From: Chara braunii
Taxonomy: Eukaryota; Plantae; Charophyceae
Assembly (NCBI GenBank): GCA_003427395.1
Contig: BFEA01000028.1
Location: 1,249,521 to 1,313,520 of the forward strand
DNA: 64,000 nt
Reading direction: 5' to 3'
The notes under the pieces are model-generated. The model was given only the letters and a program-made list of their open reading frames with translations. It ran no database searches and had not been told where the DNA came from. Shown one piece after another: positions 1 through 61,000 of this stretch. Each line of letters starts with the position of its first letter. Within the stretch, counting starts at the first letter, position 1. The position numbers and the translations under genes were made by a program.

Positions 1-1195
1 CAGTTCGTGTCGATGTCGATCCAATAGTTTTGCCAATCTGCATTAGCGGCCATGCCGATGCTGTCGCGATAATAGTTCCATACCAGTTCCGTTCCAGTAA
101 GCGTACCAATGCCGGATCCGAAGAAACGCTCTGATTTACCGCCGCCTGCACTATTATCATACCGCTCGGTGCCGAGTGTCGTACCGTGCAATAATGCATT
201 GTAATAATACCGAGCGTGTCCCGAACCAGAGTATCGTGCCCGAATCGACCGAGCGGTAACACCCAAGCAATAAAGCCCAATCAAAATAGCACCGGTGGTA
301 ATCCCGCGTCGGGCATCCATCCCGCACTCACTCACTACACCCTGATTGGAACAATGTGGCGCTTAAGCAAATAAGGTAAGTTTAGCATGTCAAGCGGCAA
401 TCTCGATTATCGAAAAATTGAGAGAGTCGTTAGAATCAGGGTCGTTAGAATCAGGGTAAATAAATGATTCGGAATTAAACCCCCTCGCGAATAATTAAGT
501 AAAAATTAGTTAATTATCAGATAATCGTGGGTTTCCTTCTCGTTTTATTATTTTTAATTATTTTTCTTATTTCTTAGTTCCATTATCGAAAATAACGAAA
601 ATAAAAACAATCTTGTCAAAAATAAATTCCGATGGACTTCAATTCAATAACGTAAATTTTTTGTTTTCTTTTTCTTTTATGGCCTTGATCCCTTTTTTTT
701 ATTTTTAACTCTATTGTCATAAATTCCAATAATTGAGGGCGGTCCCATTAAAAATCAAATATCAAAGATTTTGAATAAATTAATGAATATTCTGTTTTTC
801 TCTTCTCTTCTTTTGTTTTTAATTTATTTTCTCATTTTTAATTTTGATATCAAAATTGATGATATCCGAGGTCTCACTTCTGCGCCAGTTGTGGAGTGTA
901 AAAGGACCACGCCTAAGCCTATCTCCATCTTGCTGTTCAGCAGGCGGCTGTCCCGGAAATTGGCTAAATGCGGCGGTATTAAGATAGACGCCGCCGCGGT
1001 AGAAGAGGTCGTCCTTCTTGTCAATTTCGAGAGTTAGTCTCAACGGTCGTCATATCTAATTTTAGGGATACTCGGGGTACCCCTAATTTTTGTTGCCTGG
1101 TCAAACCAGAGTACCGTCATTGCACGGACTTGTCTTTGAGCCTAAGTCCCTAAGCCGCAAATTTCAGGCGGCTCACTGCTTGTGGCCACCTGACA
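1..1195 (-). repeat. 3' LTR (partial)
   Basis: Matches 18443-19622 with scattered substitutions and a 15-bp tandem duplication (GTCGTTAGAATCAGG, ~426-455). Homology stops exactly at TGACA 1195. Confidence 0.93.
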
Positions 1196-1508: not shown

Positions 1509-2926
1509 CTATCGCCAACCCTTTGACCTTTCTTCTCTCCACCCTCTTCCTCTTCTTGGAACTCTCTCCTGCCTCATATCGTCTCGAGGGGGCTTCATCC
1601 TCCATTTTGGCCTTCCCTTTCCCTTTCGGGCTGTCAGCGGTAAGGTGGGTGCAGGCCTGGGTCTAAACAGCTTTAACCTAGCACCCGCCACTGGGTCCTT
1701 CCACTTGGATCCGTCTAATTCTGCTATCATATAGGCACCCCAGTCGAGCGCCTCAACCACTCTGTAAGGTCCCATCCATCTGTTGGCGAGTTTTCCGGTC
1801 CAGGTCCTTTCGAGAGCTGCGTCGTAGAGAAGGACCATATCTCCTACGCTCACCCTCTCTTTCCTGATCCACCACACCCTTATCTCATCTCTCTTTACCT
1901 TTGTCCCTCTCCACTGCCAGACGATCTGCTGTTGTCCTAAGGTTGTCTTCCAAACCGTAGGCTATCTGTCTTGCTCGGGCAGCTATTAGTTCCTCTCTGG
2001 ACATCCTTTCCGCTCAGTCGACGGTTGTCCAACTGTCGACGTGAAACTCTACTGGAATGGACAATGTCGCCCGAACCACAAGGTGTATGGTGGGTATCCA
2101 GTGCTAGCACGGACCGTGACGTTGTCCGCCCATATTGCGTATTGAAAATATCGTGGTCAATCGATGTCCTCACCTTTGCACCACTTGGATAGTGACGCTA
2201 TCAGAGTCTGGTGTCCCCTCTCTACTGGTGAGTTCGACTGTGGGTGGTAGGCGGTGGCTATTGAAACTCTCGCCCCGGCTCTCTTAACCACATTCTGAAC
2301 CTCCTCGGCTAGAAATTCCGCCCCTCTATCCATCACTATCTTGCTGACACAACCATAGCTAGATAAGTACTCTAGGACGAAGTTCTTCACTTCCCTAGCC
2401 GACTTACTCCTGATAGGTCTACCATCCATGAATCCAGTGAAGTCGTCTCGTATGTTCACAACATAGTTCATATTGCCTATTCCTTTCGGCATCTTCACCA
2501 GATCGATGTGTACCTTCTCTCCTGGCCTAGTCGGATAGGATGGATGAAGTGGCTCTTTGTATTTCACAAGAGCTCTCTTCTAACACTCCTCGGAGGTTAT
2601 ACAGTATCTCTCGACATCCTTATACTGTCCCTCCCACCAGTACAGTCTACGTACCTTTTCGTAGGTTCCTTTGACTCCTCTATAACCTCCGACCCGACTG
2701 GTCTTCGAAATAGATGACCCGCTCTAAGGCAGTACTGGGTTGCTTGTCTCCGGACATTTGAATCTTGACTCTCCTCTCCTGACAAGTGTAGCCCGATTGT
2801 TCGATATTTGCCCTCGTAAAGGTTAACCAAAAATCGATCGGCGCGTCTCGGTTCCGCCATTGTCACGGCTCCAACTACTATCGGGCGCTCGGCCTCAAGA
2901 GGGAACCGAGAAAGCCAATCCGCCAC
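1509..2926 (-). pseudogene. pol: Integrase (fragmented), with GPY/F motif and no chromodomain seen
   Basis: VHIDLV...DRGAEF...YHPQSNSPVER DDE core (2157-2567); WMGPYRVV in 1509-1877. Confidence 0.92.
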
Positions 2927-3063
2927 GACATTTTTAGTACCCGATATTCTCTCAACTGTGTAATCATAGAGTCGAATCCGTATTAACCATCGTGCGATGG
3001 TCGGGTCCGTTAGATTAAAGTCCTTCTGGAGGACTGCTCGGCCTCAAGAGGGAACCGGGAAAG

Positions 3064-3700
3064 TCAATCCGCCACGGCATTTTTAGTACCCGATATTCTC
3101 TCAACTGTGTAATCATAGAGTCGAATCCGTATTAACCATCGTGCGATGGTCGGGTCTGTTAGATTAAAGTCCTTCTGGAGGACTGAGGCAACCGCTATGG
3201 GATCTACTCGTAAGATGAACCGTCGTCCGTAGATATAGTGTCTGAACGTGTCTAGGCACCGCAGAACAGCTAACACTTCCTTCTTGAATTGACTATAGTT
3301 ACGCTCAACAGTATTAAGTGTTCTACGCTCAAATCTTAACGGTCTCTCCTTTCCTTCAGCATCCTTCTGAGATAGCAGACCACCAACTGAACAAGGTCCA
3401 GCATCCGTGGATATCACGAAGGGTCTCCTGGCCTCATCGTCAAAGAACGGCACGCCCAATACGCGTCCCCCTTCCTTAAATTTATCTTTAAGCTCTTGCA
3501 TTGCGAGTTCCTGAGAAGAATCCCAGTACAGTTTCTCAGCCTTCCGAAGGAGCAGCCTCAAAGGCTCAGCCTTCTCTACATACCCCCGTATGAAAATCCG
3601 CCAGTAGCCGACCACCCCCAGAAACTGTCGGACCTTGGTAGCACTATGCAACGGCGACGGCCAGTTTAGGAGTTTGTCTAGCTTCGCAGGATAAAGCCTA
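3064..3700 (-). pseudogene. pol: RT connection and RNase H
   Basis: VRQFLGVVGYWRIFIRGY; STDAGPCSVGGLLSQ; ERNYSQFKKEVLAV; GTKNAVAD. Confidence 0.92.
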
Positions 3701-4450
3701 AGATCTTTATAGTTGAGACGGCCCATTGGCTCTTTGTTCTGCTGACCGTCAAATTTGCATCGTCTAACTGTTTGAGTACCGCGCAAATATCGGTTAGGTG
3801 CTGCTCGACAAATCTCCTAACTCCTGGTACAACTTCTGCCTCATTTTTCTCTACTGGTCCTTTTATAGGGAAGTCATCCAAAAATACTTCAACCTTGTCA
3901 GGAATGAAGTCCTTGAGGACGGCTACCATGGCTCTCTGAAAAACGGCTACCCCATTAGTCCAACTCATAGGGACGACCATCATTTGTATCAATCCCAAAG
4001 GTGTGTACATAGTCGTGAGGTGTCTGTCCCTAGGATCAAGGGGTACCTTATTATAGCCTGATAACATATCACAAACCGAATAAATCGACATGCCCGCGGC
4101 GCCTTCAGCCAGTATGTCGGCGTGAGGTACAGAGCCTACGTCTCGGGATCGTCACCGCGTTGACCTTCTGCAGGTTCTGGATCCACCGGATCTTGCCATT
4201 CGGTTTTCGTAGGAAGAACCATCGATTAGCATAAGTGTTGTCAGATGGCTTTGCTACATGAGAAGCCATCTTCTCTTTCAGGAAAGCGATAACCTCTTCC
4301 TTCTCCTTCTGGGCGTATTTCCACCCTGCGCCATTCCATGGAACGTGTGGAATCGTGTAAATCCTCGCTGGTTTAGCGTAACGAGGGTCCACCCTTCCGC
4401 GCTCGGCGTCACTGAAAGCTATGGTCTTATCGCACGTCCTTAAAACTTCT
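3678..4450 (-). pseudogene. pol: Reverse transcriptase (frameshifted)
   Basis: YANRWFFLRKPNGKIRWIQNLQKVNAVT; CDMLSGYNKVPL; VPMSWTNGVAVFQR; VFLDDFPIKG catalytic motif. Confidence 0.93.
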
Positions 4451-4625
4451 TTGACACGTTCCCGCTCCTATGGGGTTAGATTTCCATCTCCGATGTCCAT
4501 TCCTGCTATCCTCTCTTCCGTTAGGCGCTGCGGCTCCTTTTTTTTCCTTTCTTTAATTTCCTTCGCGATCTCTCCTTCCGATATCCCTTCCAGCGCAGAT
4601 CGCTCGCCGCCCACTGCTGTTGGTT

Positions 4626-6010
4626 TTACGTTCTGAGCCACTCACTTGTGTCGCTTAAGCTGCCCCCCATAGGAGGTTGTGCCCTTAAAAAAGATACTAT
4701 GCCACTAAATTCCTCATTTGACTCCTTTGGATACGAGTTGCCGTCCACTATCATTCGGCTCCCTAAATCCTCCACTTCTATAATCCGGCCTTCTCCTTCC
4801 GTGAGCAGAGGTTCATACTTCTTCTCGCGAAATCGCACCGTGCGGCTGGAGATAGGTAATGATTTAATCCGATCGCTGGGCCCAGCACCCACAGCGAGAG
4901 CTGCTCTGTTTCTCGGGTATCGAGGCTCCACCGTCTCAATCATAACCCGAGTCCCATCTAGCTTCTTAATGGATAGTGTCTGGCTCCCATCTGATCGCTC
5001 TATCGTCACTGCATGCACATGACTCAACCATCTCCGCCCCAAGAGCAGGTCGGAGCTGCAGTTCTTGACTGCAAAGACTTACATGGTCACTCGTACTCCT
5101 TGAACCTCTATGGCTGCCTTGTGACAGACTCCTGTGATCTGTTGCTTCCTCCCATCAGCCGTCTCTATTTCGAATAAGTGTGTCCTATCGAGCCCCAGAC
5201 CAACTTGCTCTGCCAGATCCTCGTCTATAATGACAGCCTCACTGCCATTATCGATCACTGCATCTAGAACGGCTCCGACGTTTAGGATCGCCTCCACGGT
5301 CCCACTACCAAGTATGTAAAACTTGTCCGGAGGGACACCTTCCATCCCATCAAGAAGAACTGTTGCCATGCGATCTGCTCTTGCGGTCACCTCCGATACT
5401 GCTACAGTAGGAGCATCCGCGTTAGGGGCCACCTGAACCTCCTCTGATAGTGGAATGCGAGACTTTCGCGTGATCGTCTGTAACTCGTCTTGAGCCGGCT
5501 TGGATGCAGCCAGATATTCTAGTATAAAGCATTGCATGGGCTGCCGAAGGGCCCATCTCAGTGGCTCGACCGTGTCAATATCATCCAGCGAACTCTTCAT
5601 GAAGAACTTCTTCACTCCCTGCTTTCGTGGTGAAAGTATAACCTCCTCGCCATCGACCCGCTGTCCGTCCTTTTCTGCCATCACATAATCTGTGTCAGTC
5701 TTCCTCGATGCAGACCCTCTTGCCGACTTCGTTGCTGCCACCCTTATGGGTGCAGCTGCCATATCTCCTTCGAAAGTTATCCTAATGCTCTGGCTCCTTA
5801 CCGGCTCTTTTCCCTTACTCGGCCTCACTCTCCTCGCTTCTACATTCTCATTCATCGAAGGGAACATTGATACATCTCCCAAATCACCTGCCCACTTGAT
5901 GTACTTGCGGTCATCAAGCACGACAAGTCCCTCATCTATTGCCCGTTTGAGATCCGGACAATCTCTCTTGATATGATATCTCCTATGCAGTAGACGCAAG
6001 AGTTCCTAGG
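4626..6010 (-). pseudogene. pol: Zn knuckle, aspartic protease and linker (fragmented)
   Basis: C..C...YHIKRDC knuckle across a frameshift near 5990; LDAVIDNGSEAVII protease motif; D-L-L-L-G-R-R-W-L flap near 5040. Confidence 0.85.
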
Positions 6011-6109: not shown

Positions 6110-7789
6110 TCAATCATTCCGGCCGCGCGAGTCATTGCGCCGGTCTCCTCCAGATCCTCCTTGGTCATATCGTCCCCGTGAATCATTCCGGTGGTCTCCA
6201 TGGTCGTATCGCCCGCGTGAATCATCACGCCGGTCTCCTCGGTCGTACCTACCCCGCGAATCGTCGCGCTGATCTCCCGCGAATCCCCCGTGGTCATACC
6301 TTCCACGCGAGTCATCTCGACGATCTCCGACTCGATCTCCTCTCTCATACCTGCCTTGCCTGTTTCCATCTCGGTCCGACCTCTCGTATCTGTCGTCACT
6401 GTATCCGTCTCGCCGATCTCGGTCCGACTCCCATCGACCCCGTGGGTCGCTCCTATCCCCATCAACCTCATGTCGAGGACTGCGCGAGTAATCATCCCGT
6501 CTCCTTGCTCGCCCATACGTCTCGCGAACCCTACGGTCTCGGTCTATCTCATCATCCCTTCGTCGCCATGGCTCATTTTCTCTCTCCATTTCCCTTACTC
6601 GATAATCGGTTAGCGTTCGAGGATTTCTATCCTCGACACTCCTCCAGGAATCGGTGTTCCTACGGTCCCACCGAAGTGAATAGGGCCCTCCGGGTTTGTC
6701 CCGGTATGTCGTGGCTCCCATATTGGTCACAATCTCTGTAACATGCCTAGTCAATCCCTTTACCATATCCCTTATCTCCTTCACTTCCTCAGCTACCGCC
6801 TCATTCTTTTCCAACCACGGATAGTCCTTGAAGTCAGGGCATTTATCAGTGGCATACTCTTTATAGAGAGAGAAGTCTCGCCTCCTCATTCCTCTCCATA
6901 CCAGACCCTTGTAGTCGTCTGCCTCTGCCTTTATCGCGAGCTTAAGGACTTCAGGGAAGTCAAGCTTGTCGCGCATAAAATCTCTAAGTATACTCTTTTG
7001 TCTCCTTTTGGACAGGTGTCCAATAAAAATAGTACAGCGCTCGACCTCTGAGATCTTCTGGAAACGCTTTCCGAATGCCCTAACGCTCTCGTCCTCATCT
7101 TGAGTCATGGTCTCAAGGTCCTTGATGGAGTACTTGTTATCCTCCAACTTGTAAAGTTCAATGAGGTTCTTCTTATACGTGGTCCATTTTCCATCCTTCG
7201 GTCGGGCTTCCTTAACTTCCTTGCCAAGACTTGGATCTACATTAAATAGGAAATTTTCCACAATCTCCTCCTCCGACCACTGACTCCGGCTCGCATGAAG
7301 CTCCCACTTCTCCAGATATTCTGTGATGCCATAACCCCTAAAAGTGGGAGGCTCAGAGGCCTTGTGCGTAATAATATAGCGATCCTTACTCTCGTAAGGA
7401 AGCGGATGCGACTCCCCTGTCTTGGGGTCGAAGGCTCGCCTGGGCAGCGCTCTGTCTCTATCTTTGTCCCTCCAATACCTCAAACTCTCTCTCCAGTCGT
7501 CCCTGTGCCTATCCGCCATGGTTTCCCTCCGCTCATACTCGGGGGAGCGTCGTCTCGTCGCTTCTCGTCGACCACTCGAGGTTCCTGTCTTCAATGCCTC
7601 CTCCGGCTCAGTCACGACTGGTTCGACCATTACGTCAGGTTCCCCGTCATTGGTCTGGTCAGCCCATCTCAGAGGTGCTCCCAGCCTAATTCGTTCCTTC
7701 AGTCCCCTCAGTGCACGGTCGGGCAATGTCCTGTACTCCTCTCTTACTTGGCCCGCGATCGATTGTGGCTCCATTGCGTCTGATTCCAT
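6110..7789 (-). CDS. gag: Gag-like protein (559 aa) with Arg/Asp-rich repetitive C-terminal part; frameshifted before the Zn knuckle
   Basis: PPTFRGYGITEYLEKWE and QDEDESVRAFGKRF resemble a retrotransposon capsid core. Lies directly upstream of the Zn knuckle/protease. Confidence 0.8.
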   Translation of the reverse strand: MESDAMEPQSIAGQVREEYRTLPDRALRGLKERIRLGAPLRWADQTNDGEPDVMVEPVVTEPEEALKTGTSSGRREATRRRSPEYERRETMADRHRDDWRESLRYWRDKDRDRALPRRAFDPKTGESHPLPYESKDRYIITHKASEPPTFRGYGITEYLEKWELHASRSQWSEEEIVENFLFNVDPSLGKEVKEARPKDGKWTTYKKNLIELYKLEDNKYSIKDLETMTQDEDESVRAFGKRFQKISEVERCTIFIGHLSKRRQKSILRDFMRDKLDFPEVLKLAIKAEADDYKGLVWRGMRRRDFSLYKEYATDKCPDFKDYPWLEKNEAVAEEVKEIRDMVKGLTRHVTEIVTNMGATTYRDKPGGPYSLRWDRRNTDSWRSVEDRNPRTLTDYRVREMERENEPWRRRDDEIDRDRRVRETYGRARRRDDYSRSPRHEVDGDRSDPRGRWESDRDRRDGYSDDRYERSDRDGNRQGRYERGDRVGDRRDDSRGRYDHGGFAGDQRDDSRGRYDRGDRRDDSRGRYDHGDHRNDSRGRYDQGGSGGDRRNDSRGRND

Positions 7790-7833
7790 AGACTACTAGA
7801 AGTTGCAGTCGGGCACTCTCACCCCGTATAAGC

Positions 7834-7966
7834 CCAGACCTATGACCGTAGCAGCAGCCCGAACCTATGACAGTAGCAGCAGCCCGGACCTATGACAGTA
7901 GCAGCAGCCCGGACCTATGACAGTAGCAGCAACCCGGACCTATGACCGAACTCGCAGCCCGGACCT
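7834..7966. repeat. 25-bp tandem repeat, about 5 copies, just upstream of gag
   Basis: (CCCGGACCTATGACAGTAGCAGCAG)n. Confidence 0.9.
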
Positions 7967-8099
7967 GTCTACTTGTCACGGTTCGCGTCCGTCTCCAACC
8001 CTAGCTCTCGGCTGCTCTGATCACTGCCACTAATACTCCGTTCTGGTCGCGGACCTCGTATTCCTCTTCTATCCCAATAATCCCTGTGCCCATGTAAAC

Positions 8100-8799
8100 T
8101 TATCCTTCGGGTTCTGTCAACAAGGCCGCCCCTCTCCTGATCTGCACTTCACCCGTAACAGGATCCCTTCGCCTGTTGCAGATCGTGGTCCTAAGTCTAA
8201 CCAATGTCTCCTGAGTAGCGCCCCTCAACAGTGCTCGTGCGTCTATCTCCGTCCTCCTCTTAAGACCATCTAGTCCTTCCTGACTCGGGTGACCCTCAAA
8301 CGGAGGGAACTCTCCTCCTATCGCCATCTCTAGCCGCTCCTCTCACCATCCTGACAAAGTCCACAGTTGGTTCCTACTCGTTGTGAGCTAATCCCTTGTC
8401 AGGAATCGGGGGTCTAGGCAGGGTATCGAAAATGGCTATGTCATCACTGACCTCGACTATCTTCCCAAGTGCTTCTAATCTCTGTTTCTCCTCCCTTAAC
8501 TTCCGGGCAACTATCCTCCAGCACCTTGTGTACGTACAAAACTCCTCTCTCTCCCTTGACAAGTATATCCCTATGTGATATGTGTCGAGACCCGGAAAGT
8601 ACACGGTCATAACATAGAATTGGTTGCGCTCCTAACCACTGTTCGCTTCCTGATAGGCAACGACGTCATAAGGAACCAGTTCCCTGCGACTAATCCCGCT
8701 TAGTCCCCGTAACAGTCTCTCTCTCTCGTGTGGTAGTGGTCCACTTCATCCACCAAACTTCCATCTCCTCCGCTGCAACTCCTCGGGAGGTAGGGTCAT
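8100..8799 (-). pseudogene. Accessory ORFs G and H (degenerate; 8374-8799 and 8100-8327)
   Basis: ATG at 8799, 4 nt after the ORF F stop, then an early stop or frameshift; 78-aa and 75-aa frames remain. Confidence 0.35.
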
Positions 8800-8803
8800 C
8801 TGT

Positions 8804-9319
8804 CTAGCATCTGAGACAGGTCAGCGCTATAGCTGCTCGTAATCTCGTCGCCGACAACTCCAATATATCATAGAACGCCTCAAATTCTTCCTCATCTCCA
8901 CTATCCTCTATGGCCTCTAAAGTCTTTATCGATTCCCTCCAGTATCGGTCATGAGCAGTTAGCACCCTGAGTATTGCTCCGTCTACTATAACTCTCCCTA
9001 GCTCTCCAACTCTCCTGGCTTCGCTTATCTTCAACCTCTCAGCCTCTCTGGACGTCTCGTACCACGCCCTTATCTGAGGCCGCCCTTCGAAAGGTGTTAC
9101 GCGAAGTACGTATTTTATCCTTCGTCCTCCTTCCACTCCAATCCAAAGTCCTGTTCCCCTAGCCTCTTGCAGTGCACGGCAAACATACTCTGCCTCCTCA
9201 ACTACGCACAACCTGGTATGGAGCTGGAGCTCTGCAATCACTAACACCAACGGTCCGTCCAGTCTCCCTACCACATGCAATGAGTACCTGTCCCTCGTGT
9301 ATAGTGCAGTCCCGCTCAT
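8804..9319 (-). CDS. Accessory ORF F (171 aa)
   Basis: ATGA overlap with ORF E; globular composition. Confidence 0.5.
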   Translation of the reverse strand: MSGTALYTRDRYSLHVVGRLDGPLVLVIAELQLHTRLCVVEEAEYVCRALQEARGTGLWIGVEGGRRIKYVLRVTPFEGRPQIRAWYETSREAERLKISEARRVGELGRVIVDGAILRVLTAHDRYWRESIKTLEAIEDSGDEEEFEAFYDILELSATRLRAAIALTCLRC

Positions 9320-9636
9320 GTCATGTTGCTATCCCCCTGCGTTACCTTGTCCTTCGTTGTTACGTCCTCTGCAGACTTTTCCTTAACTCCTTCGCGCGAT
9401 AGGTTCCTAGCCTTTACCCTCTCCTGAAAGTTTGATCTCCACGCCTGGATAATCTCTTTATCCTCCCTGAAGATACTCTCTAACTCTTTTGTCGCGAGCT
9501 CAACCCTACGCAATTTGCCCTCATCCTGGCACGACCCGATCTCCCTTATCTTGTTCCCCAACTCCTTTACCCGGTTCAAGAGTGGTTCTTTAATGCGCTT
9601 TCTCACTCTTCCGACCGCCTCACTTTCCTCTTCCAT
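9316..9636 (-). CDS. Accessory ORF E (106 aa, charged, coiled-coil-like)
   Basis: ATG start, E/K/R-rich; its stop overlaps the next start as ATGA. Confidence 0.45.
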   Translation of the reverse strand: MEEESEAVGRVRKRIKEPLLNRVKELGNKIREIGSCQDEGKLRRVELATKELESIFREDKEIIQAWRSNFQERVKARNLSREGVKEKSAEDVTTKDKVTQGDSNMT

Positions 9637-9666: not shown

Positions 9667-9948
9667 TCATACCCTCGCTCTAGCCTCTGCTACCGTCTCA
9701 TCGTGGTAGTGCTCCACGCGCATATAACCATGAGACCACATCATCACATCATAGGAAATCGAGGTCTGGAAGGTCACCTGCGCCAGTACATCAGCCCTAT
9801 GCTCGAGGATCAAATCCCTAGCTCGTAGTCGGCACTCCCTCACCGTCAAGTCATCATCTATGTATGCTCGAAGAAGTACCGTCACAGTGTACCCTGTGCT
9901 GACCAGTTGCTTATCTAAGCGCATCACAGTTGCCGTTCTCCCCGACAT
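9667..9948 (-). CDS. Accessory ORF D (93 aa)
   Basis: ATG 3 nt after the previous stop; VLLRAYIDDD weakly resembles the N-terminal strand motif of A and B. Confidence 0.45.
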   Translation of the reverse strand: MSGRTATVMRLDKQLVSTGYTVTVLLRAYIDDDLTVRECRLRARDLILEHRADVLAQVTFQTSISYDVMMWSHGYMRVEHYHDETVAEARARV

Positions 9949-9951
9949 TCC

Positions 9952-11303
9952 CTAAGCTGCGTCCTCGAAGAGAAACCTCACATCCTCCAGCCCCACATAA
10001 TCAATCTCCGGTCGTCTCCTGCAGTGCCTAATCAGATCGACTGGCCTCAAACAGTCCACCCAGCAAGTAGCGTCTATGATGTCGTCAAGCGTCTCTCTGC
10101 TGGGTGGCCCCCACCTTACACAAATGGAGTAGTACGCTTCCCTGAAACGGGGAGCTAAGCCCTCCCAAAGCGCGTAAAGTGTGTGGTCCACTACCTCACT
10201 CAGACGGTCTACACTCCCGTAGGTCTGCCCTATTACGAATGCAGGAAGTCCAAATCGCCAACCCTCTTCCGGGTAGAAGGTCGGATACGGAAGTCCATAT
10301 ACCAAGCGACTCTAGTACGACCTTCCTCCTGAGAGTCTCGCCAGTTGCTGATTAACGATCACTCTGGCCAACAACTCGTTTCTCCACCAAGCCCTGCTAG
10401 CCCCTACGAGTGTCAGCCCTACGTCTAAATCATGAGCTCTGTCCGTTATCAGATGTCCCACCCCTTCTAGGTCATGAGTCCTTTCGGGTCATCTATCTTT
10501 CAGTATCACCGTCCAAAGGAAAAGTCCCTCTGCCAGTTGCGTTCCAAGGTAACGTATCAGAACACAGCCAGTCTCCTCTAACCTCACAGGAAGAGGAATA
10601 TCATATCCAACAGCCGTCTCTCTGGGTCTCCTCACGCTATAGGATTTGGAACACAGCCAGTCTCCTCATGACCTTCCTCCTGAGAGTCTCGCCAGTTTGC
10701 TGATTAACGATCACTCTGGCCAACAACTCGTTTCTCCACCAAGCCCTGCTAGCCCCTGCGAGTGTCAGCCCTACGTCTAAATCATGAACTCTATCCGTTA
10801 TCAGATGTCCCACCCCTTCTAGGTAATGAGTCCTTTCGGGTCGTCTATCTTTCAGTATCACCGTCCAAAGGAAAAGTCCCTCTGCCAGCTGCGTTCCAAG
10901 GTAACGTATCGGAACACAGCCAGTCTCCTCTAACCTCACAGGAAGAGGAATATCATATCCAACAGCCGTCTCTCTGGGTCTTACAAGTTTCCTCACGCTA
11001 TCGGAACACAACCANNNNNNNNNNNNNNNNNNNNNNNNNNNNNNNNNNNNNNNNNNNNNNNNNNNNNNNNNNNNNNNNNNNNNNNNNNNNNNNNNNNNNN
11101 NNNNNNNNNNNNNNNNNNNNNNNNNNNNNNNNNNNNNNNNNNNNNNNNNNNNNNNNNNNNNNNNNNNNNNNNNNTATCGGAACACAACCAGTCTCCTCTA
11201 ACCTCACAGGAAGAGGAATATCATATCCAACAGCCGTCTCTCTGGGTCTTACAAGTTTCCTCACGCTATAAGTTAGCCAAGCTGCTGAGTCACTCCTCAT
11301 CAC
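9952..11303 (-). pseudogene. Accessory ORF C, broken by an N gap and a ~352-bp repeat
   Basis: Fragments 10998-11303, 10637-11185 and 9952-10305; the last has GLPAFVIGQTYGSV, similar to ORFs A and B. Confidence 0.5.
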
Positions 11304-11321
11304 TCAAGCTAACTCATTAAC

Positions 11322-12488
11322 TCAAGTCGCCCAATCGCTATGGGCTAAGTTCTTGACAATAGGCCCCTCTCGTTCCTTCGCTCTCAGTTCCAGCCCGTGA
11401 CTGGCGGAGCAGGAATCCCTTCTTCTCTCACTGAACTCCGTCCCCAGACGCGGCCAATGGATGCTACCCTCCTCTGGCCCGTCCTTGGGCCAGTCCTCTC
11501 CGAAGAGATCCGCCAACCCTAGGTCCGGCTGTACCCGGATCCTACGGCCGTCGTCGTCGAAAATCCACTGGTCCGATTCCTCCTCTGGCCAGTCCTCATC
11601 CGCTTCCCCTATGTCGTGGTACCCGTAGTGGCACTCGAGCTCGTTGATCCTAACAAGCCCTGCGTCCGGCCAATATGACTCGTCGTCAAACAACGTGGCC
11701 ACGCCTCCCAAATGGTAAGTCCCCCTTGATAGAGCACTCCGGAATACGTCGTAGGGGAAAGGCTCTCCCTCAGACGCCCACAGGTATACGAACGATCGGA
11801 CAAACTCCACAAGCTCTATACGGTCCTCCCTGTCTATAAAGCCTCGCAAGAGTTGAGCAGAGTAGAAAAGTCGCCTCTGGACATTGCTCTGAAAAAGTCT
11901 CTCAAGCTCCTTCGTAAGGAGATAACTCTGCACCAGGTTCCCTATCCCACCGAAGAGCTGATCCACTACGAACAAAGGGATCACTGTCGCTACTTCGAAG
12001 AATCCTTGTGGATATGGAAAGTACCATGGCGCTGCTAAGGCTAAGTGCCCCCTCACAGGACACGGCCTCGTATCGCTACACCACGGTCTGCGCTTCTCGA
12101 AGAAGTCCTCCTCGCCTCTGACTGTGTCCCTAACCTCTGCGTCGAGAATGTCCTCCGCCTTGCGTATCGAGGTGCTCTCTCCCAACGTCAAGCTCTCCAC
12201 TATAATCGTGACCTCTGCGGTCCTGTCTATGTATATATATGCCCTCACGTCTATCCTCATCGAGTCGGGTACTACCCGTCCTCGACGGTCGTGCTCAAAG
12301 CTCGCGTCGTGGTACATCCACATCCATACTCCCCTATCCGCAAGCACGGATCTGGGGCTGCGATAGTCTCTGTAGGAGGCTCCTTCACGACTCACGAAAG
12401 GAACCTCCACTGTCTCATCGTCATACAACTCAGGGACGTTAAAGGACGAGGTCGGAAAGACGTCATAATCCTCTGGCATAGAGGTCAT
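11322..12488 (-). CDS. Accessory ORF B (388 aa, unknown function; paralog of ORF A)
   Basis: ATG 4 nt after the ORF A stop; shared motifs VR(G/A)(F/Y)(L/I)Y(L/I)D, GHL and VIPxFV. Confidence 0.7.
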   Translation of the reverse strand: MTSMPEDYDVFPTSSFNVPELYDDETVEVPFVSREGASYRDYRSPRSVLADRGVWMWMYHDASFEHDRRGRVVPDSMRIDVRAYIYIDRTAEVTIIVESLTLGESTSIRKAEDILDAEVRDTVRGEEDFFEKRRPWCSDTRPCPVRGHLALAAPWYFPYPQGFFEVATVIPLFVVDQLFGGIGNLVQSYLLTKELERLFQSNVQRRLFYSAQLLRGFIDREDRIELVEFVRSFVYLWASEGEPFPYDVFRSALSRGTYHLGGVATLFDDESYWPDAGLVRINELECHYGYHDIGEADEDWPEEESDQWIFDDDGRRIRVQPDLGLADLFGEDWPKDGPEEGSIHWPRLGTEFSERRRDSCSASHGLELRAKEREGPIVKNLAHSDWAT

Positions 12489-12492
12489 ACGT

Positions 12493-13344
12493 TTAGAGGT
12501 CCCTACCTCTCCGCTGTCCGGGGATAGCTACTCCTATCCGGGAAAATCCTGCGTTCATGTCTATGCCCCTCTCCGGCTCCTCAACCACGGCCTCTCTTTC
12601 GTCCTCGTCGCGTCGCTTGTCAACAAAATACGGAGGGTACCGAATCGCCTCGTAATATCGCTCCAACTGGCCCGAGTACACCAGAGCCCCAGAGTCCCTA
12701 TCCAGTCGGACCCACCAATCATCAACGAAAAGACTGTCTATACAGGTGATGAACTCTGGTCTCGCGCAGAGCTCCCGATCAAGCAGGTCCCATACGTATG
12801 CGAGAGGGGAAACACCCCACAGGTGCTTTTGTGCCCTCGGAGCTATCGACCGAATCAGCTCTATGAGTTGTATCCCTTCGTCGCCTCTACGTGGTCCTCC
12901 GGTCATGAGCGAATAATAAATGTAACACCTGTCTAAATCCCCTCTTGCAAAAAACTCCAACTCGCTGTAGGCGAGGTAAGCCTCAGCTAAGCCGCCTACT
13001 CCTCTGAACGTGCCTTCCGTCACGAAAGCGGGAATTACTGCCCTAAGCCACGACGTCGAGTACGAGAAGAAGTTGCGTCGTGCGACCCGCAGATGTCCTG
13101 TGACCTCTAAAGGAGGTAACCCTAGAATCAAGGTCAACGGGTCGCGGGCCGCCTCCCCTCGAAAGGCGCCTACCTCCTCTTGGACAATCTGTGACGCTCT
13201 CTCAATGATAGGACTTGTCTGGTAGATCGCTAACGACCATGCGACATCCTTGGCCTTATCTAAATCTAGGTAAAGAAAGCCCCGCACTACGCCTCTAGAC
13301 CGACCTCCGTCCTGACCTCTCTGGTGCTCTCGATACGTCCACAA
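12493..13344 (-). CDS. Accessory ORF A of the retrotransposon (283 aa, unknown function; true start uncertain)
   Basis: Long ORF of globular composition between PBS and gag; aligns by eye with ORF B. Confidence 0.65.
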   Translation of the reverse strand: MWTYREHQRGQDGGRSRGVVRGFLYLDLDKAKDVAWSLAIYQTSPIIERASQIVQEEVGAFRGEAARDPLTLILGLPPLEVTGHLRVARRNFFSYSTSWLRAVIPAFVTEGTFRGVGGLAEAYLAYSELEFFARGDLDRCYIYYSLMTGGPRRGDEGIQLIELIRSIAPRAQKHLWGVSPLAYVWDLLDRELCARPEFITCIDSLFVDDWWVRLDRDSGALVYSGQLERYYEAIRYPPYFVDKRRDEDEREAVVEEPERGIDMNAGFSRIGVAIPGQRRGRDL

Positions 13345-15090
13345 CCAAGCACCAGTGGTGAGAAGGGTAGACCTCCAACCTGATTGACCATCGTGTTCGA
13401 AGGTCGGTCAGGCGGGTAACGTTAACTCTACCAAGTCGTCTCCTAGGAGTTCCGGGGGTTCTATTCCCCAGGCAGGATCGACTTCGTACTGCTCCACAGC
13501 CTCTGGCTGCCACATCCAAGCAATCGTCCCCTTTCACAGGAATCACCGGGCCCCGCTCCCGAATAGAACCTCTACGCCTCCTGACCGAGTCTCCCCGATC
13601 ACGAGGCGGGTGTCCCACTCGATAGAAACCCTTAGGAGTATTCCTCCAGCGAGTTCCTGGCCAGCGGGAGTCCCTCTCTAAAAGTCTATAAAAAAAACCC
13701 TAAATCGGGAAGGCTAGCGTCATTCCCTTAGCCATCCCTAATCTCCAATTTTATTTAAGGGTATTTAATTCGGGAAAATTACTGAATTTCTTTCCTCCCC
13801 CTATCTCCTACTCTCGACTCACTCCTCAGACTAATCCAGGAAAGGTCTGTAGGCAGTCCTAGGTTCCGCCGCCTTCTTCCGGCCCTCCTTTAGGAATTTT
13901 CTCTAATTTTAACCAATTAATTAGGGATAATTAGGTTAAAGTCAGAGAATCCCTTTCCTTGGTTTGGTGGCCGAGTAGACTTGTTTTCCAAACCTACCTC
14001 AAAATCTGGCCAATTTTCTGGCCTTCCCGACTATTTTACTTAATTTTCTTGACTTAATCAGATTTAGTTCTAATAAAACAGAGGAGATGCCTGTAAAATT
14101 CGTTTTCTTATTTTACTCCTATCTAGGGCTATATTTTACATTATGTCTCTCAGTCCCAAAATTTTTGATGGATCTATTTAATTACTAAAAATTTTCGAAA
14201 AAAATTGGCAGCATCTCCCCTCCCCCCTTTGGGATGGGGTTCGGAGCTGTTGCCCCTAGCTCAGCAGTCTAAAGAAGGAGCCTACAAATTTTGATCCAAA
14301 TAAATCAAAATTTACTTAATCCATTTTCAAAAAATAATTTTCGTTTCAAGTAAATAACAAAAATAACAAGAAAGAGGAATCATAAGATAATTCAGATTTG
14401 TTTCGAACCAACTTTTACATGTTGCTCCTCGGGGTTGTTAGAGTTTAACTAACTAGGGTTTCGGGGTTTTGTGCGCAACCGCACGCTCGCCCCCGCCCCT
14501 CGTACAACCCCGGGATTTTCCCTGCTGACCCTCCTAAATATCCGAAAAATCTTTATCCGATTACTTTCCTTTAATTTCTATTACCCCATTTTTTTCACAA
14601 AATGTAAAAGAAAATACAAATTTTATTTTTGTTTTCCAAATTTTTCTTCGTTGTTCGTTGCTGTTTCAGCCCCTAACTAGCTCTGATCATCTCGCCCTAG
14701 GTATCAAAACGACAAGAAAAAAAAGCTGAATAACTTTGGTCCAGGGGTTATCCCTAAAAAAAGGACCAGTTTCTCGCAATAAATTAAAAGGAAATACTGG
14801 TAATTTTGAATTATTAAATAAGAAAATAAAAAATTTTAATTATCTTTAATTCCGACAGTTAGAAATTCGCAAGAAACGTCTCAAAACGTTCGCCTCGTCA
14901 TGAGGTCGAACTTTCCCCTCAAGGTACTTCGCGCAAAAACACACGGTTGATGAGTTATCTTAAAAGGAAATATTTTTAGATTTTAACAAAAATAAGAAAA
15001 ATCGACTAATCAACTTATTGAAGCTAATTAGTCGTTCCCTGGGCACCCCCGTTATGTGGGGAAGGTCGTGGCCTTGGGGGTGTGATCCCC

Positions 15091-15108
15091 TCCCCGGCAA
15101 CGGCGCCA
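15091..15108 (-). promoter_or_regulatory. Primer-binding site, tRNA-Asp
   Basis: Minus strand TGGCGCCGTTGCCGGGGA is complementary to the 3' 18 nt of plant tRNA-Asp; the same PBS is used by Athila elements. Confidence 0.9.
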
Positions 15109-15284
15109 AATTTGTAAGGAAACCCGGGGAGGGGCCTTCACTGTGCGGTGAAGCCAAGGGGTACAGTGCCTGTCACTTCACTGCCCCCGCTTCGGAGGTC
15201 CTCAACGACCAGCAAGGTGTGCAAGTTTCGGAATGCCCGTCAATCGCGCGCCCATACAAGACTCTTATTCACTTTGTTCAGGAA

Positions 15285-15585
15285 GTATAGCAACAAGTGA
15301 AAGCAAGACTCTAATCATTGTGATCGGTGAATACAACAACAAGTGTAAGCAAGGCCCTGTTCGTTGTGGTCAGCGAATACAGCAGCAATTGAAAGCAAGG
15401 CCCCGCTCGCTGTGATCGGCGAATACAGCAGCAACTGCATAGAAGGTCCTGCTCGCTGTAATCAGCGAATACAACAGCAAGTGTATAGAAGGCCCTGTTC
15501 GCTGTAATCAGCGAGTACAACAGCAACTGAAAGCAAGGCCCTGCAAGTGGAAACAAGGCCCCGTTCTTTGTGATCAGCGAATAGT
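15285..15585. repeat. ~45-bp tandem repeat, about 6 copies, in the LTR
   Basis: GAATACA(A/G)CAGCAA...AAGGCCCTGTTCGCTGTAATCAGC units. Confidence 0.85.
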
Positions 15586-16597
15586 GTTTTTCAAGGAACA
15601 TGAGTTTCAATGACATTGTGTGCNTNTATGCAGAAAAGACCTCACAAATCTTTGNTGANATGCCTGTTTGGAAGTAACNTTTGCGGTATGANTCAGCAGT
15701 TGCTCGCCCATCCACCTTCACACAGTATGTATCACAAGGTGGATTATCCAACAATGAGAAAATATTTTGAAACAACCCCCAATTTGAAAGTCCATGCAAG
15801 ACAGTTCAATCATGACGCGACTAGAAATCTTTTGGTGGGCCACTCTTGGCGTTGATCAGACGACAGTTATTCTCAACCGAGGGGTTTATGCACCTACTGG
15901 GTTTGGTTCTCACTTCCTTTCTCTGCACACACTCTCTCCCTCTCGGTACGCTCTCTCTCCCACTCCGCTCTCACTTTTTTCCTCTCTGCACGCTCTCTCT
16001 CCCTGGCTCGCTCTCTCCCCCCCTTCACACTCACTCTTTCCCTCTCTGCACGCTCTCTCTCCCTGGCCCGCATTCTCGCTCCGCTTCCCCCAATTCCCTC
16101 TCTCTCTCTCTCGCACGGAGTAGCCCTCTTGCGTGCGAGCAGATTGTAACCAGGTTGGCACGAAGTCTTAAATGATGTGTTCGATTGAGCAACTCTCAAT
16201 CGGCCAGCATTATAATCCCCAGTAATACCCTGAATGGCAATTTGAAATCGATTCGGTTCAGGGTTTGGAACGACACCCTCGTCCGAGTTGATCTCGATCG
16301 ATCTGAAATAAAGTTCCTTAAAATGCCCTTAATTCAGNCGCTTGTAAACGATCGGCCTCTTGAGGTCTAGGAATTAATGGAGTTAAAATCTTTCAAACAT
16401 AAGATAAAGAAAATAAATAAATAAAACATAATAAAAGACTCAATTGTGCTATATAAAAAAAACAGAAGTATTTGTCGGGGTCTAACCAGCGAAAATAGTT
16501 ACCCCCGTCAGCGACGGTATACTTCTGCCTGTTCGGACTGATTTGTGAGGTCAGTTGTTCCCATCAGCAGCAGTGGACTCTTGCTTAATTTGACCAC

Positions 16598-16897
16598 TCC
16601 CACAGGGTATTCTGGACAGATCAGCAAACGTACTTCGGTTAGTCCGCTCGCAGAGGCTATTCGCAGCAGATCAACAAGTATACTTTGATTAGCCTGCTCA
16701 CACAGACTATTCTCGTTAGATCTGCAAGGGAACTTTGGCTGACCCGCTCACAGCGGCTATTCTCAACAGATCCGCAAGTGTACTTTGGTTAGCCTGCTCA
16801 GACAGGCTATTCTCGTTAGTACTGCAAAGGAACTTTGGCTGGGCCGCTCACAGCGGCTATTCTTAACAGATCCGCAAGTGTACTTTGATTAGCCCGA
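16598..16897. repeat. ~50-bp tandem repeat, about 6 copies with ~99-bp dimer period, in the LTR
   Basis: GCTCAC...GCTATTCTC...AGATC.GCAAG...ACTTTGG units alternating between two variants. Confidence 0.85.
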
Positions 16898-19800
16898 CAT
16901 GTGAAAATAGTCGTTCCTGATTGCTGCAGAGGTTCTTGATGGGGCTGATTCACCGAAACCGGCTACCCTAGCCCGCAGCAGAATTACTTAATTAGCTCGA
17001 ACCAGGGAGCCAAGTCGTTTCTGCCATTTGCTTAATTGGACTGGCTCGGTAGACTGGCTGTATCCGCCGGTTGCTCCCTCTATTCCCCGCTCGCCCTCTC
17101 TCTCGTTCCTACACTGATGGAATCATACCCGTTCGCCAACNTCCCTTCCTCCCTTNTTCCCTCCTCGAACTCTCTCCATCTTGATCTCTCTCCTTCTCAA
17201 TCTCTCTTTCCCNCACCTATACTGTGCANGCCTCTCTCCGTTCCGAACTTACTNGCNAAACCCTCTCTTTGCCTGCCTNTTCTCTCTCTCTCTATCTGAT
17301 TACACGCTCTCTTTCCGCCAGAGCACTCTCTATCTGGCAGTCCACTCTCTTCTTCCTTTTTCACCCCTTTCGTTCCCTCTAATCCGCGGAAAACACCCCC
17401 CCCTGTGCTNAGTCAATCATCTGNGGAAGACGTCANNCCGGAGGAAGACGTCAGTCTGTGGACGCCGCACCGTGCACCGCTTGGTGCGCCCCTCTGCCCG
17501 TTGTGCCTGCTCATGAACCGACTCTATGCCAGCGGGNTACGCACGCCAGGCACGCTCAGTGCCTTNCTCTGCTAACCGGGGCTTTTGCGCGAGCGTGNCC
17601 TGCNNACATCAAGCACGCTGAATCCGCTCACNTCAGATCTTCCTCCCTCTCTGGCTGTCAAAGAGGCCTTTTGCTTGCGCGTTGCNTACACCGGGCATAC
17701 GCAGTGTCTCTCCTCGTTCCTCCTCTCTCGTTGATCGCCCTCAGCGNGGACACATCCCAGATNNAGTCCGAAGGGGGCTNAGTACACCTGGCGNGCGAGT
17801 CTGCCCCTNTCTCATCTNTCTCAATCTCTCTNGCTGNCGCCTGCCTGGCGCGTCGTTCCCCCTTGCTGAAACGCGCTGTGCTGGCTGAGGTGTACGCCAG
17901 GCACGNTGTCCCCTGCAGCTCGTTGACCTTCTCTCCTTCAGACGCGATCCCAGGCTGGGTACACCTGGTGCACCCCCCCCTGGTGTCCCGTTTGTCGCTC
18001 TATATCCACACGTGAAAGCTGCAGCACGGGTACCTTCGAATCTTTTCGCTTCTTTCATCGCCCAGGCCCTGAAACGGGAGCTAGCCCCTCGGCACCAGCG
18101 GTACTAGGGCTATAGGTTTGGCATAGGCATTTCTTCAAGTGACAATGTCGCCAAAGCCCAGGCTTTAGGCCCGGTAATAGCAGCTCACGGACCCAGCAGG
18201 ACCGATGCAAATTCAGGGCTCGCGGTGAAGGGTATCAAAAGCCAATGCAGCCGGTCGTCATCGCTTATTCCGCACAGTCAAACCATGTTGCCGGGATAAT
18301 TGCAGTGACTAAAATAATCCTCCCCAGCGAATTATCATGGAAAAAAAAATTAGTACCCTCGAATAAATGAACCACAACAGTCCTGAGGTGGATCGGAGTT
18401 TCATACTAGGACATACCAATATCGAACCGCCCAATACCGTACCAGTTCGTGTCGATGTCGATCCAATAGTTGTGCCAATCTGCATTAGCGGCCATGCCGA
18501 TGCTGTCGCGATATTAGTTTCATACCAGTTCCGTTCCAGTAAGCGTACCAATGCCGGATCCGAAGAAACGCTCTGATTTACCGCCGCCTGCACTATTATC
18601 ATACCGCTCGATGTCGAGTGTCGTACCATGCAATAATGCATTGTGATAATACCGAGCCTGTCCCGAACCAGAGTACCGTGCCCGAATCGACCGAGAGGTA
18701 ACACCCCTGCAATGAAGCCCAATCAAAATAGCACCGGTGGTAATCCCGCGCCGGGCATCCATCCCGCACTCACTCACTACACCCTGATTGGAACAATGTG
18801 GCGCTTAAGCAAATCAGGTAAGTTTAGCATGTCAAGTGGTAATCTCGATTATCGGAAAATTGAGAGAGTCGTTAGAATCAGGGTAAATAAATGATTCGGA
18901 ATTAAAACCGCTCGCGAATAATTAAGTAAATATTAGTTAATTATCAGATAATTGTGGGTTTCCTTCTCTTTTTATTATTTTTAATTATGTTTTTTATTTC
19001 TTAGTTCCATTATCGAAAATAACGAAAATAAAAGCAATCTTGTCAAAAATAAATTACGATGGAATTTAATTAAATAACGAATTTTTTTTGTTTTCTTTTT
19101 CTTTTACGGCCTTGATCCCTTTTTCTTATTTTTAACTCTATTGTCAGAAATTCCAATAATTGAGGGCGGTCCCATTAAAAATCAAATATCAAAGATTTTG
19201 AATAAATTAATGAATATTCTGTTTTTCTCTTCTCTTCTTTTGTTTTTAATTCATTTTCTCATTTTTAATTTTGATACCAAAATTGATGATATCCGAGGCC
19301 CCACTTCTGCGCCAGTTGTGGAGCGTAAAAGGACCACGCCTAAGCCTATCTCCATCTTGCTGTTCAGCAGGCGGCTGTCCCGGAAACAGGCTAAAGGCGG
19401 CGGTATTAAGATAGACGTCACCGCGGTAGAAGAGGTAGTCCTTCTTGTCAATTTCGAGAGCTAGTCTCAACGGTCGTCATATCTAATTTAAGGGATACTC
19501 GGGGTACCCCTAATTTTTGTTGCCGGGTCAAACCAGAGTACCATCATTGCACGGACTTGTCTTTGAGCCTAAGTCCCTAAGCCGCGGATTTCAGGCGGCT
19601 CACTGCTTGTGGTCGCCTGACAAAGTATCCATCCTACTATAAACATGGGTGATCACCTGAATCGACAAGCAGGCACACATCATTAGTCTGATGAGCAGCA
19701 TTGATTGCCCTCAACCGAGGGGATTAACTGGCCATCGCAGTCTAACATCATATCCCTAGTCTGAATCCCTCATCATCTACAAAATCGTTCTTGCAGCACC

Positions 19801-60600: not shown

Positions 60601-61000
60601 AACACATCAGCACCAGGACTCGAGAAGCTTGGAAGCGGATGAAAAGTGACCTTCTCGAGGAGAAGACCCTACTGCTAAGCAAGCAATCCGCGACTCCTAC
60701 GCACAGATTTCGCAGGATCCAAACAGAATATTCTCTGAACTGGATGCCACCCTCAACATCATTTGGAAACCATGGAGGAACACGGAACCCAGATGGCAAA
60801 GGAGATCTTTCTCCGAATTCCAAGTTCCTTACCTCCGACCCAACTTTGTCCTCCTCGCGCCTCCGCAGCCATAACAGGACTGAGACTACCCACCCCCGTC
60901 CCTCCCCATCTTCCCCCCCCTGCCCGCCTTTCCCCCTTCTCCCCCTTGTCCCCCCCCCCTCTCTCTCTTCCCCAACTGCCTGCTGGGGATAACGGGGACA
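57650..61000 (+). mobile_element. Decayed, 5'-truncated L1-clade LINE ORF2 (RT and zf-RVT)
   Basis: KTPGIDSFP, LYKKGD...NYRPITLL, QTGFVPNRNIQDN, IDFEKAYD, VRQGHPIAPLLF, LFANDL (degenerate FADD) and CAYC...EHYMLAC; several frameshifts and stops. Confidence 0.93.

Follow-up and report, generated by a model that had tools for sequence, protein, structure and literature searches.

Paralogous accessory proteins of unassigned family in a row of eight ORFs ahead of gag in a decayed Ty3/Gypsy retrotransposon of Chara braunii

Where does a row of open reading frames (ORFs) with no recognisable domain come from, and what could it do for the retrotransposon that carries it? This question is raised by a stretch of 64,000 nucleotides of Chara braunii (assembly GCA_003427395.1, contig BFEA01000028.1, positions 1,249,521 to 1,313,520; hereafter the window), in which nine ORFs or ORF segments, A to I, are carried on the minus strand by a decayed, very long Ty3/Gypsy long terminal repeat (LTR) retrotransposon. 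A preliminary description, made by reading the sequence alone, had presented three of them (A, B and C, within 9667..13344) as products of an old tandem duplication that were kept by selection. The features on which this claim depends are the following, with positions counted in the window.

12493..13515, minus strand: ORF A, paralog 1; 340 codons, with a premature stop in this copy at 13410-13408 (TGA)
11322..12488, minus strand: ORF B, paralog 2; 388 amino acids (aa), open
10306..11300, minus strand: segment D, which probably forms the first half of paralog 3 and has one piece that shares the reading frame of ORF C
9952..10305, minus strand: ORF C, which probably forms the second half of paralog 3

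The motifs on which the claim was based were located on the minus strand at 13407-12493 for A (stop to stop) and at 12488-11322 for B. In BLASTP, A and B aligned with E=5e-17 and 71/256 identical residues (28%). The Smith-Waterman score of the pair was 175; shuffled sequences gave a mean of 35.9 and a maximum of 58, and 0/1000 reached the score. At the DNA level, the best match between A and B was 17 bp long (E=0.13). The start of A is ATG 13515, as shown by the homolog P0003, and the A/B homology spans the whole protein. Judged by their sequences, A and B are true paralogs. Thus, the alignment of A with B, far beyond shuffled controls, and the likeness visible in protein and lost in DNA were both confirmed; the old tandem duplication was borne out for A and B and is probable for a third copy.

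With regard to this third copy, the motif quoted for C is present, and pairwise comparison of C alone was not significant, with 142/1000 (versus A) and 59/1000 (versus B) shuffles reaching the score (z 1.1-1.7). Against family profiles, C alone gave z 5.4 (1/500 shuffles) and 4/2000 with a hidden Markov model (HMM). Segment D consists of three overlapping pieces around a gap of 160 N, which represent either duplication or assembly redundancy. The joint reading D+C, in which X was placed at two stops, was compared with an averaged profile of five family members and gave z 5.1 (local) and 5.8 (glocal), with 0/500 shuffles each. HMMER was weaker (10/2000 with a five-sequence profile and 4/2000 with a twelve-sequence profile), and hhalign gave E=0.019 at a probability of 2.4%. 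For D alone, glocal z was 3.1 against the profile and 4.5 against the homolog P0011. P0011, which was found after the D+C register had been seen, gave this same register when it was aligned with D+C (BLAST E=0.014; 5 and 2 of 1000 shuffles). This register was also supported by P0007 (3/1000 glocal); P0010 gave local support only (8/1000) and P0009 none. A protein homolog of D+C was not found among 1833 candidates of 124-396 aa. Since the colinear alignment with the family beats shuffles when C is read with D, D+C is probably a third paralog. The preliminary description had therefore seen just the second half of this copy, and left unmentioned the row of eight ORFs, the primer binding site (PBS) as well as the 4.5-kb LTR described below.

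The family comprises 10 homologs, all from Chara braunii and each on a contig of different length. Word-indexed searches yielded 2/4350 and 2/1855 homologous candidates, and a profile search of 1.84 billion proteins yielded 8 homologs at E 0.001 or better; no relative was found in the metagenome and viral contigs searched. Three deep branches were distinguished, namely an A type (7 proteins, 48-58% identical to A), a B type (2 proteins, 88-90% identical to B) and P0011, with identities of 22-34% between branches. The gene model P0006 combines an A-type ORF (51% identical to A) with a protease region that is 80% identical to that of the element; A would evolve faster than pol if both parts of P0006 come from one element. 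Likewise, P0004 and P0008 combine A-type with gag-, pol- or E-like pieces. The P0009 sequence occurs under two gene numbers that follow each other, which may reflect another local duplication.

As had been stated beforehand, no family could be assigned, and there was no immediate hit to a known domain. Pfam gave no accepted match for the accessory ORFs A-I and the 10 homologs. For the accessory ORFs, neither PHROGs (two rows at E 0.06-0.07) nor NCBIfam gave a match, and the best E values among PDB sequences, 1.1 and 1.9, were taken as chance. Two AlphaFold models had a mean predicted local distance difference test (pLDDT) score of 45.8 and 48.2. Both agree on the N-terminal order of three strands, two helices and one strand, and the second model contains a block of pLDDT 65-88 over residues 51-150, its helical half being below 50. 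In the predicted layout, an N-terminal three-strand/two-helix/one-strand domain is followed by a second half made of helices and by a tail that is acidic and rich in tryptophan. Foldseek returned nothing at E 0.001 or better, viral models included. The best VIA Z values for the two models were 7.2 and 4.5, the usual chance best being 7-8. In the ESM Atlas, P0003 gave no usable match, and residues 40-160 of P0009 gave a best feature score of 0.89 with unnamed phage-rich clusters, which is a lead only. From searches with these predicted models, it does not follow that the fold is known or that it is new, and no confident model of the helical half was obtained.

These searches also bear on a quite improbable explanation, in which the N-terminal domain would be a very divergent GNAT-like acetyltransferase acting on chromatin or host proteins. 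It draws on 18 of the best 50 VIA rows being titled acetyltransferase, GNAT or GNA1, on the recurrence of chain 5hmn for both models (Z 5.2 and Z 4.5; root-mean-square deviation (rmsd) 4.0-4.3 for GNAT chains) and on 4/10 Atlas structure rows being GNAT clusters. However, the best Z of the better model was 4.5 at rmsd 4.3, with none at 5 or above and thus below the chance best, most rows rest on residues with pLDDT under 50, the Atlas template modelling score was at most 0.43, and Pfam gave no match. Moreover, no conserved acetyl-CoA loop was seen by eye in a 12-sequence alignment. This alignment, in which 3 sequences are partial, has just 3 invariant columns (E, L, L), and no catalytic residue set is evident in it.

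The top hydrophobic window scored 1.10 in A and 1.58 in B, with no clear membrane-spanning stretch in either. This counts against Env-like or movement proteins for cell-to-cell spread, although such roles have been proposed for extra ORFs of some plant elements (PMC7264820). The position 5' of gag, not behind pol, and the lack of a match among viral models speak against them as well, and we regard such a role as highly improbable. At residues 309-353 of P0011, four tryptophans stand beside glycine in the acidic tail; the whole protein has six such tryptophans versus 2.2 expected (P=0.011).

The element that carries the ORFs was delimited by the following features.

15113..19622, minus strand: 5' LTR of ~4.5 kb (4510 bp), TG...CA, with internal tandem repeats
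15091..15108, minus strand: PBS-like motif, beginning with TGG 4 nt past the inferred LTR end, which was itself inferred from the motif
13516..15090, minus strand: leader of 1.6 kb, AT-rich, with few ATG
6110..7789, minus strand: ORF at the gag position, 559 aa, with R/D-rich repeats, located ahead of the protease
5079..5999, minus strand: aspartic protease region (PF13650, E=6.9e-5, just under the cut-off)
3067..4467, minus strand: reverse transcriptase (RT) and RNase H, frameshifted (RVT_1 E=2.8e-12, RT_RNaseH E=6.8e-24)
1512..2579, minus strand: integrase core and SH3-like tail, with stops (rve E=2.2e-11, SH3_Tf2-1 E=0.0057)
1..1195, minus strand: start of the 3' LTR, the remainder being cut by the window edge

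The two LTRs are direct, with 18443-19622 matching 1-1195 at 94.1% identity (1195 bp compared). The 3' end of the 5' LTR (CA at 15113) was placed by the PBS position, from which the length of 4510 bp results; provided that both LTRs have this length, the total element measures ~22.9 kb. Tandem arrays of 46, 50/100 and 60 bp and many ambiguous letters lie inside the LTR at 15113-19622. The PBS-like motif presumably is of the tRNA-Asp type (Athila-like), and no tRNA gene was found within the window. The leader contains 10 ATG, compared to 33 predicted by its base composition. Short stretches of the leader (14858-14914) and around the PBS (15086-15134) had a depth of up to about 54,000 in DNA runs and are common to a very abundant family. 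The order protease, RT, RNase H, integrase is that of Gypsy elements, with stops and frameshifts, and the top two PDB matches of the RT/RNase H region were an RT/RNase H chain and the Ty3-G polyprotein. The ORF at 6110..7789, for which Pfam gave no match, is inferred to be gag from its position before the protease. Directly before its start lies a 25-bp tandem array of 5.4 copies (7831-7966). The RT motifs at 3681-4467, compared by eye, are presumably closer to fungal Ylt1-type Gypsy than to seed-plant elements. No additional RNase H was matched in 2600-3043, which runs directly into the integrase; a 149-bp tandem duplication (2887-3185) at the RNase H/integrase border shifts the frame. The chromodomain check behind the integrase, which covered 1512-1961, gave a weak SH3 match only. 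As to a polypurine tract, just a loosely purine-rich stretch precedes the 3' LTR.

Between the leader and gag, a 5.5-kb row holds eight same-strand ORFs, i.e., A, B, D+C, E, F, G, H and I. Beyond the paralogs, it contains the following members.

9667..9948, minus strand: ORF E, accessory, 93 aa; 38% identical to the tail of P0004 (z 18.7)
9316..9636, minus strand: ORF F, 106 aa, charged
8804..9319, minus strand: ORF G, 171 aa, the start of which overlaps the stop of F in ATGA
8374..8799, minus strand: ORF H, ~141 codons with two internal stops, chosen by eye; ATG 4 nt past the stop of G
8001..8327, minus strand: ORF I, ~108 codons with one internal stop, chosen by eye

E, which lies inside the range of the preliminary description, turned out not to be a paralog of A and B, with profile tests at shuffle level (84 and 274 of 500; HMM 933/2000). 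F gave a weak profile score only (10/500 and 49/2000 shuffles) and was not accepted. As a candidate fourth paralog, G reached 5 and 4 of 1000 shuffles against B, one of 28 pairs tried, yet its profile tests were negative, and H and I were ruled out by profile tests. The controls gag, RNase H and protease, like E, G, H and I, gave no match to the profile. A part of H (8377-8631) showed a weak Pfam Argonaute-N match (E=0.048) that lies under the cut-off and is probably chance.

From stop to ATG, the gaps along the row to gag are +4, +21, +3, +30, -4, +4, +46 and +211. At 4/8 junctions, the next ATG lies within 4 nt of the stop (P about 0.006 for the local ATG density, a generous value in that H and I carry stops and were chosen by eye). 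Gag thus lies behind eight ORFs, 7.3 kb from the PBS. This location and the tight junctions would suit paralogs that serve the cycle of their own element, i.e., translation trans-activators, RNA export factors or particle scaffolds through which a very long RNA would be expressed and packaged, by analogy with caulimovirus reinitiation factors or Cer1 CERV. The best matches of the helical half, none of them significant, include MIF4G and eIF3 chains with Z up to 7.1; however, any helical bundle would typically give such Z values, and this part of the model is of low quality. In addition, the proteins are acidic, not basic, and a divergence faster than that of the protease fits a housekeeping role less. 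Service to the element's own cycle therefore appears unlikely, though far from outlandish.

The reading that we tentatively prefer, while it may well prove wrong, is that A, B and likely D+C are tandem duplicates encoding fast-evolving, non-enzymatic proteins that bind host factors against silencing. It builds on the observations that A and B are paralogs, that the ORFs lie between PBS and gag with their stops and starts tightly packed, that the homologs found are restricted to Chara and that the depth of C-G equals that of gag (see below). The row of eight ORFs would be native to the element family and inherited with it, and its proteins would be translated from long RNA of the element, either by termination-reinitiation or through leaky scanning. 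Duplication followed by quick divergence might result from a conflict between element and host in which the copies came to act on different targets, and the binding of host factors would keep the element active against silencing. Many host contacts have been predicted for accessory transposable element proteins of Arabidopsis (PMC13547354), and green algae translate polycistronic RNAs (PMC7896298). A more far-reaching version, in which an abundant giant-LTR lineage of Chara would carry a virus-like, polycistronic cassette of eight proteins, three of them paralogous with an undescribed fold, translated by stop and restart and used as a counter-silencing arsenal, is possible but doubtful. The role and origin of extra ORFs of plant LTR retrotransposons are described as an open question (PMC7264820, PMC6317226). 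The large plant elements in the cited literature carry one or two extra ORFs; an element with eight, packed from stop to start before gag and multiplied in part by duplication within the element, would indicate that a retrotransposon can assemble its own virus-like accessory gene set. It would then have to be asked how gag is translated when it lies 7.3 kb into the RNA. With paralogs about 30% and orthologs about 50% identical, the domain lends itself to analyses of structure and selection.

Copy depth was determined as summed contig depth in DNA runs, which is not copy number; a unique stretch has a depth of ~14, and the read coverage left out segment 10311-11279. At a threshold of 80% identity, C, E, F and G had depths of 4,000-31,000, like gag with 11,000-44,000, and H was shallow (14-111). 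A and B, for which the threshold was 85%, had depths of 14-33, apart from the 3' end of B, where 108 was reached. Since C-G are as deep as gag, they travel with the abundant family, in which A and B are much diverged or absent. In the difference tables, of which 40 rows of 112 and 40 of 771 were covered, 9/26 of the listed differences in gag were non-synonymous. With regard to expression, 6-13% of each of three poly(A) runs was read, and one run was without any match. One RNA run gave 907 reads on C-G and gag, of which 730 were less than 90% alike; the reads ran in both directions and followed the DNA depth. A second run gave 3 reads. These reads were not counted as expression because they are diverged, two-directional and possibly DNA carry-over.

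Several results weigh against the host-factor reading. A and B are nearly unique at 85% DNA identity, and the abundant subfamily may lack them. Among the listed differences, 13/18 in A/B (versus one DNA contig) and 9/12 in C-G were non-synonymous, and the listed differences do not show purifying selection on the accessory ORFs. Across the three poly(A) runs, ~2 reads fell on A (in one run) and none on B. Segment D has a second possible register, at the C-terminal end of the domain. Out-of-frame ATGs inside the ORFs are not significantly depleted, which weakens leaky scanning. All homologs are gene models, in which splicing may have joined neighbours into chimeras. The proteins are acidic and without a basic run like a nuclear signal, and GW/WG Argonaute hooks were rejected as a family trait, being enriched in 1/13 sequences (P0011, P=0.011), with none in B. 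Finally, no result bears directly on function.

The non-synonymous differences, the near uniqueness of A and B in DNA and the lack of expression seen, together with the stops in A, D/C, H and I of this copy, would also be expected of passengers, i.e., a cassette captured once from a virus, another mobile element or a host gene, then duplicated and now decaying without benefit. However, pol has decayed equally in this copy, and the search of the 1.84 billion proteins and of viral and metagenome contigs revealed no donor. Moreover, colinear proteins at about 50% and about 30% identity occur across 10 loci with the DNA likeness gone, and neutral decay would not leave the frames open. Decay of a captured cassette is therefore distinctly unlikely. 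As for the earlier statement that the genes were kept by selection, the colinear homologs at 7 other loci (48-58% identical to A) lend it indirect support, and the mostly non-synonymous differences do not support it.

In Ogre elements, a forward extra ORF lies 5' of gag, and in Chbrypton, a Gypsy-like element of Chara, a tyrosine recombinase replaces the integrase. The present element has a true integrase (rve E=2.2e-11) and in this differs from Chbrypton. The plant mobile domain PF10536, found in 57% of Ogre, was not matched in A-I or the 10 homologs, and Ogre and Retand have an additional RNase H between RNase H and integrase that is lacking here. Lacking both, the element does not fit Ogre/Tat in its domain content as read from the sequence. 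Like Athila, it is without the additional RNase H; unlike in Athila, its extra ORFs lie 5' of gag, and the Athila ORF-1 domain PF03078 (16% of Athila) was not matched. Similarities to Ogre (OTA/Tat) are the great length, the LTR of several kb, the tandem repeats and extra ORFs without assigned function (PMC6431247, PMC6317226). Ogre is described with 1-2 extra ORFs (PMC6431247), compared to eight here, two or three of them paralogous.

More generally, extra ORFs, LTRs of up to about 5 kb and lengths of up to about 24 kb are known from plant non-chromovirus Gypsy elements, the extra-ORF proteins of which form 314 groups, most without known domains; the available text of this 2019 survey reports no non-chromoviruses in the algae sampled (PMC6317226). 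The more frequent location of extra ORFs is 3' of pol, and most are described as being of unknown origin (PMC7264820). Rice Retrosat2 combines a long LTR with ORF0, a divergent extra ORF without assignable function, but this is a single ORF in a chromovirus-type (Tekay) element, with no paralogous row in the available text (PMC3485330). Planarian Burro and rotifer Terminon share the large extra coding capacity (PMC6431247); their extra parts, as far as that source describes them, include recognisable domains, whereas all eight ORFs are unassigned here. VANC proteins of Mu-like DNA transposons, fast-evolving and lineage-restricted accessory proteins, served as the model for the proposed function (PMC13547354), although they belong to another element class, and no sequence or fold link to the acidic proteins described here was found. 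No published description of the element was found, the Chara genome paper, its supplements and the supplements of PMC6317226 lying outside the coverage of the search. Gypsy elements with 5' extra ORFs are already known; what is new is a row of eight ORFs in which two or three members belong to one unassigned protein family.

Elsewhere in the window, a 300-bp direct repeat pair at 31309-33033 is followed by a W/D/R-rich ORF with a composition like that of the accessory ORFs and no match to the family profile. On the plus strand, 58348-60989 contains pieces that, by eye, resemble a decayed non-LTR retrotransposon RT with a C-terminal zinc region.

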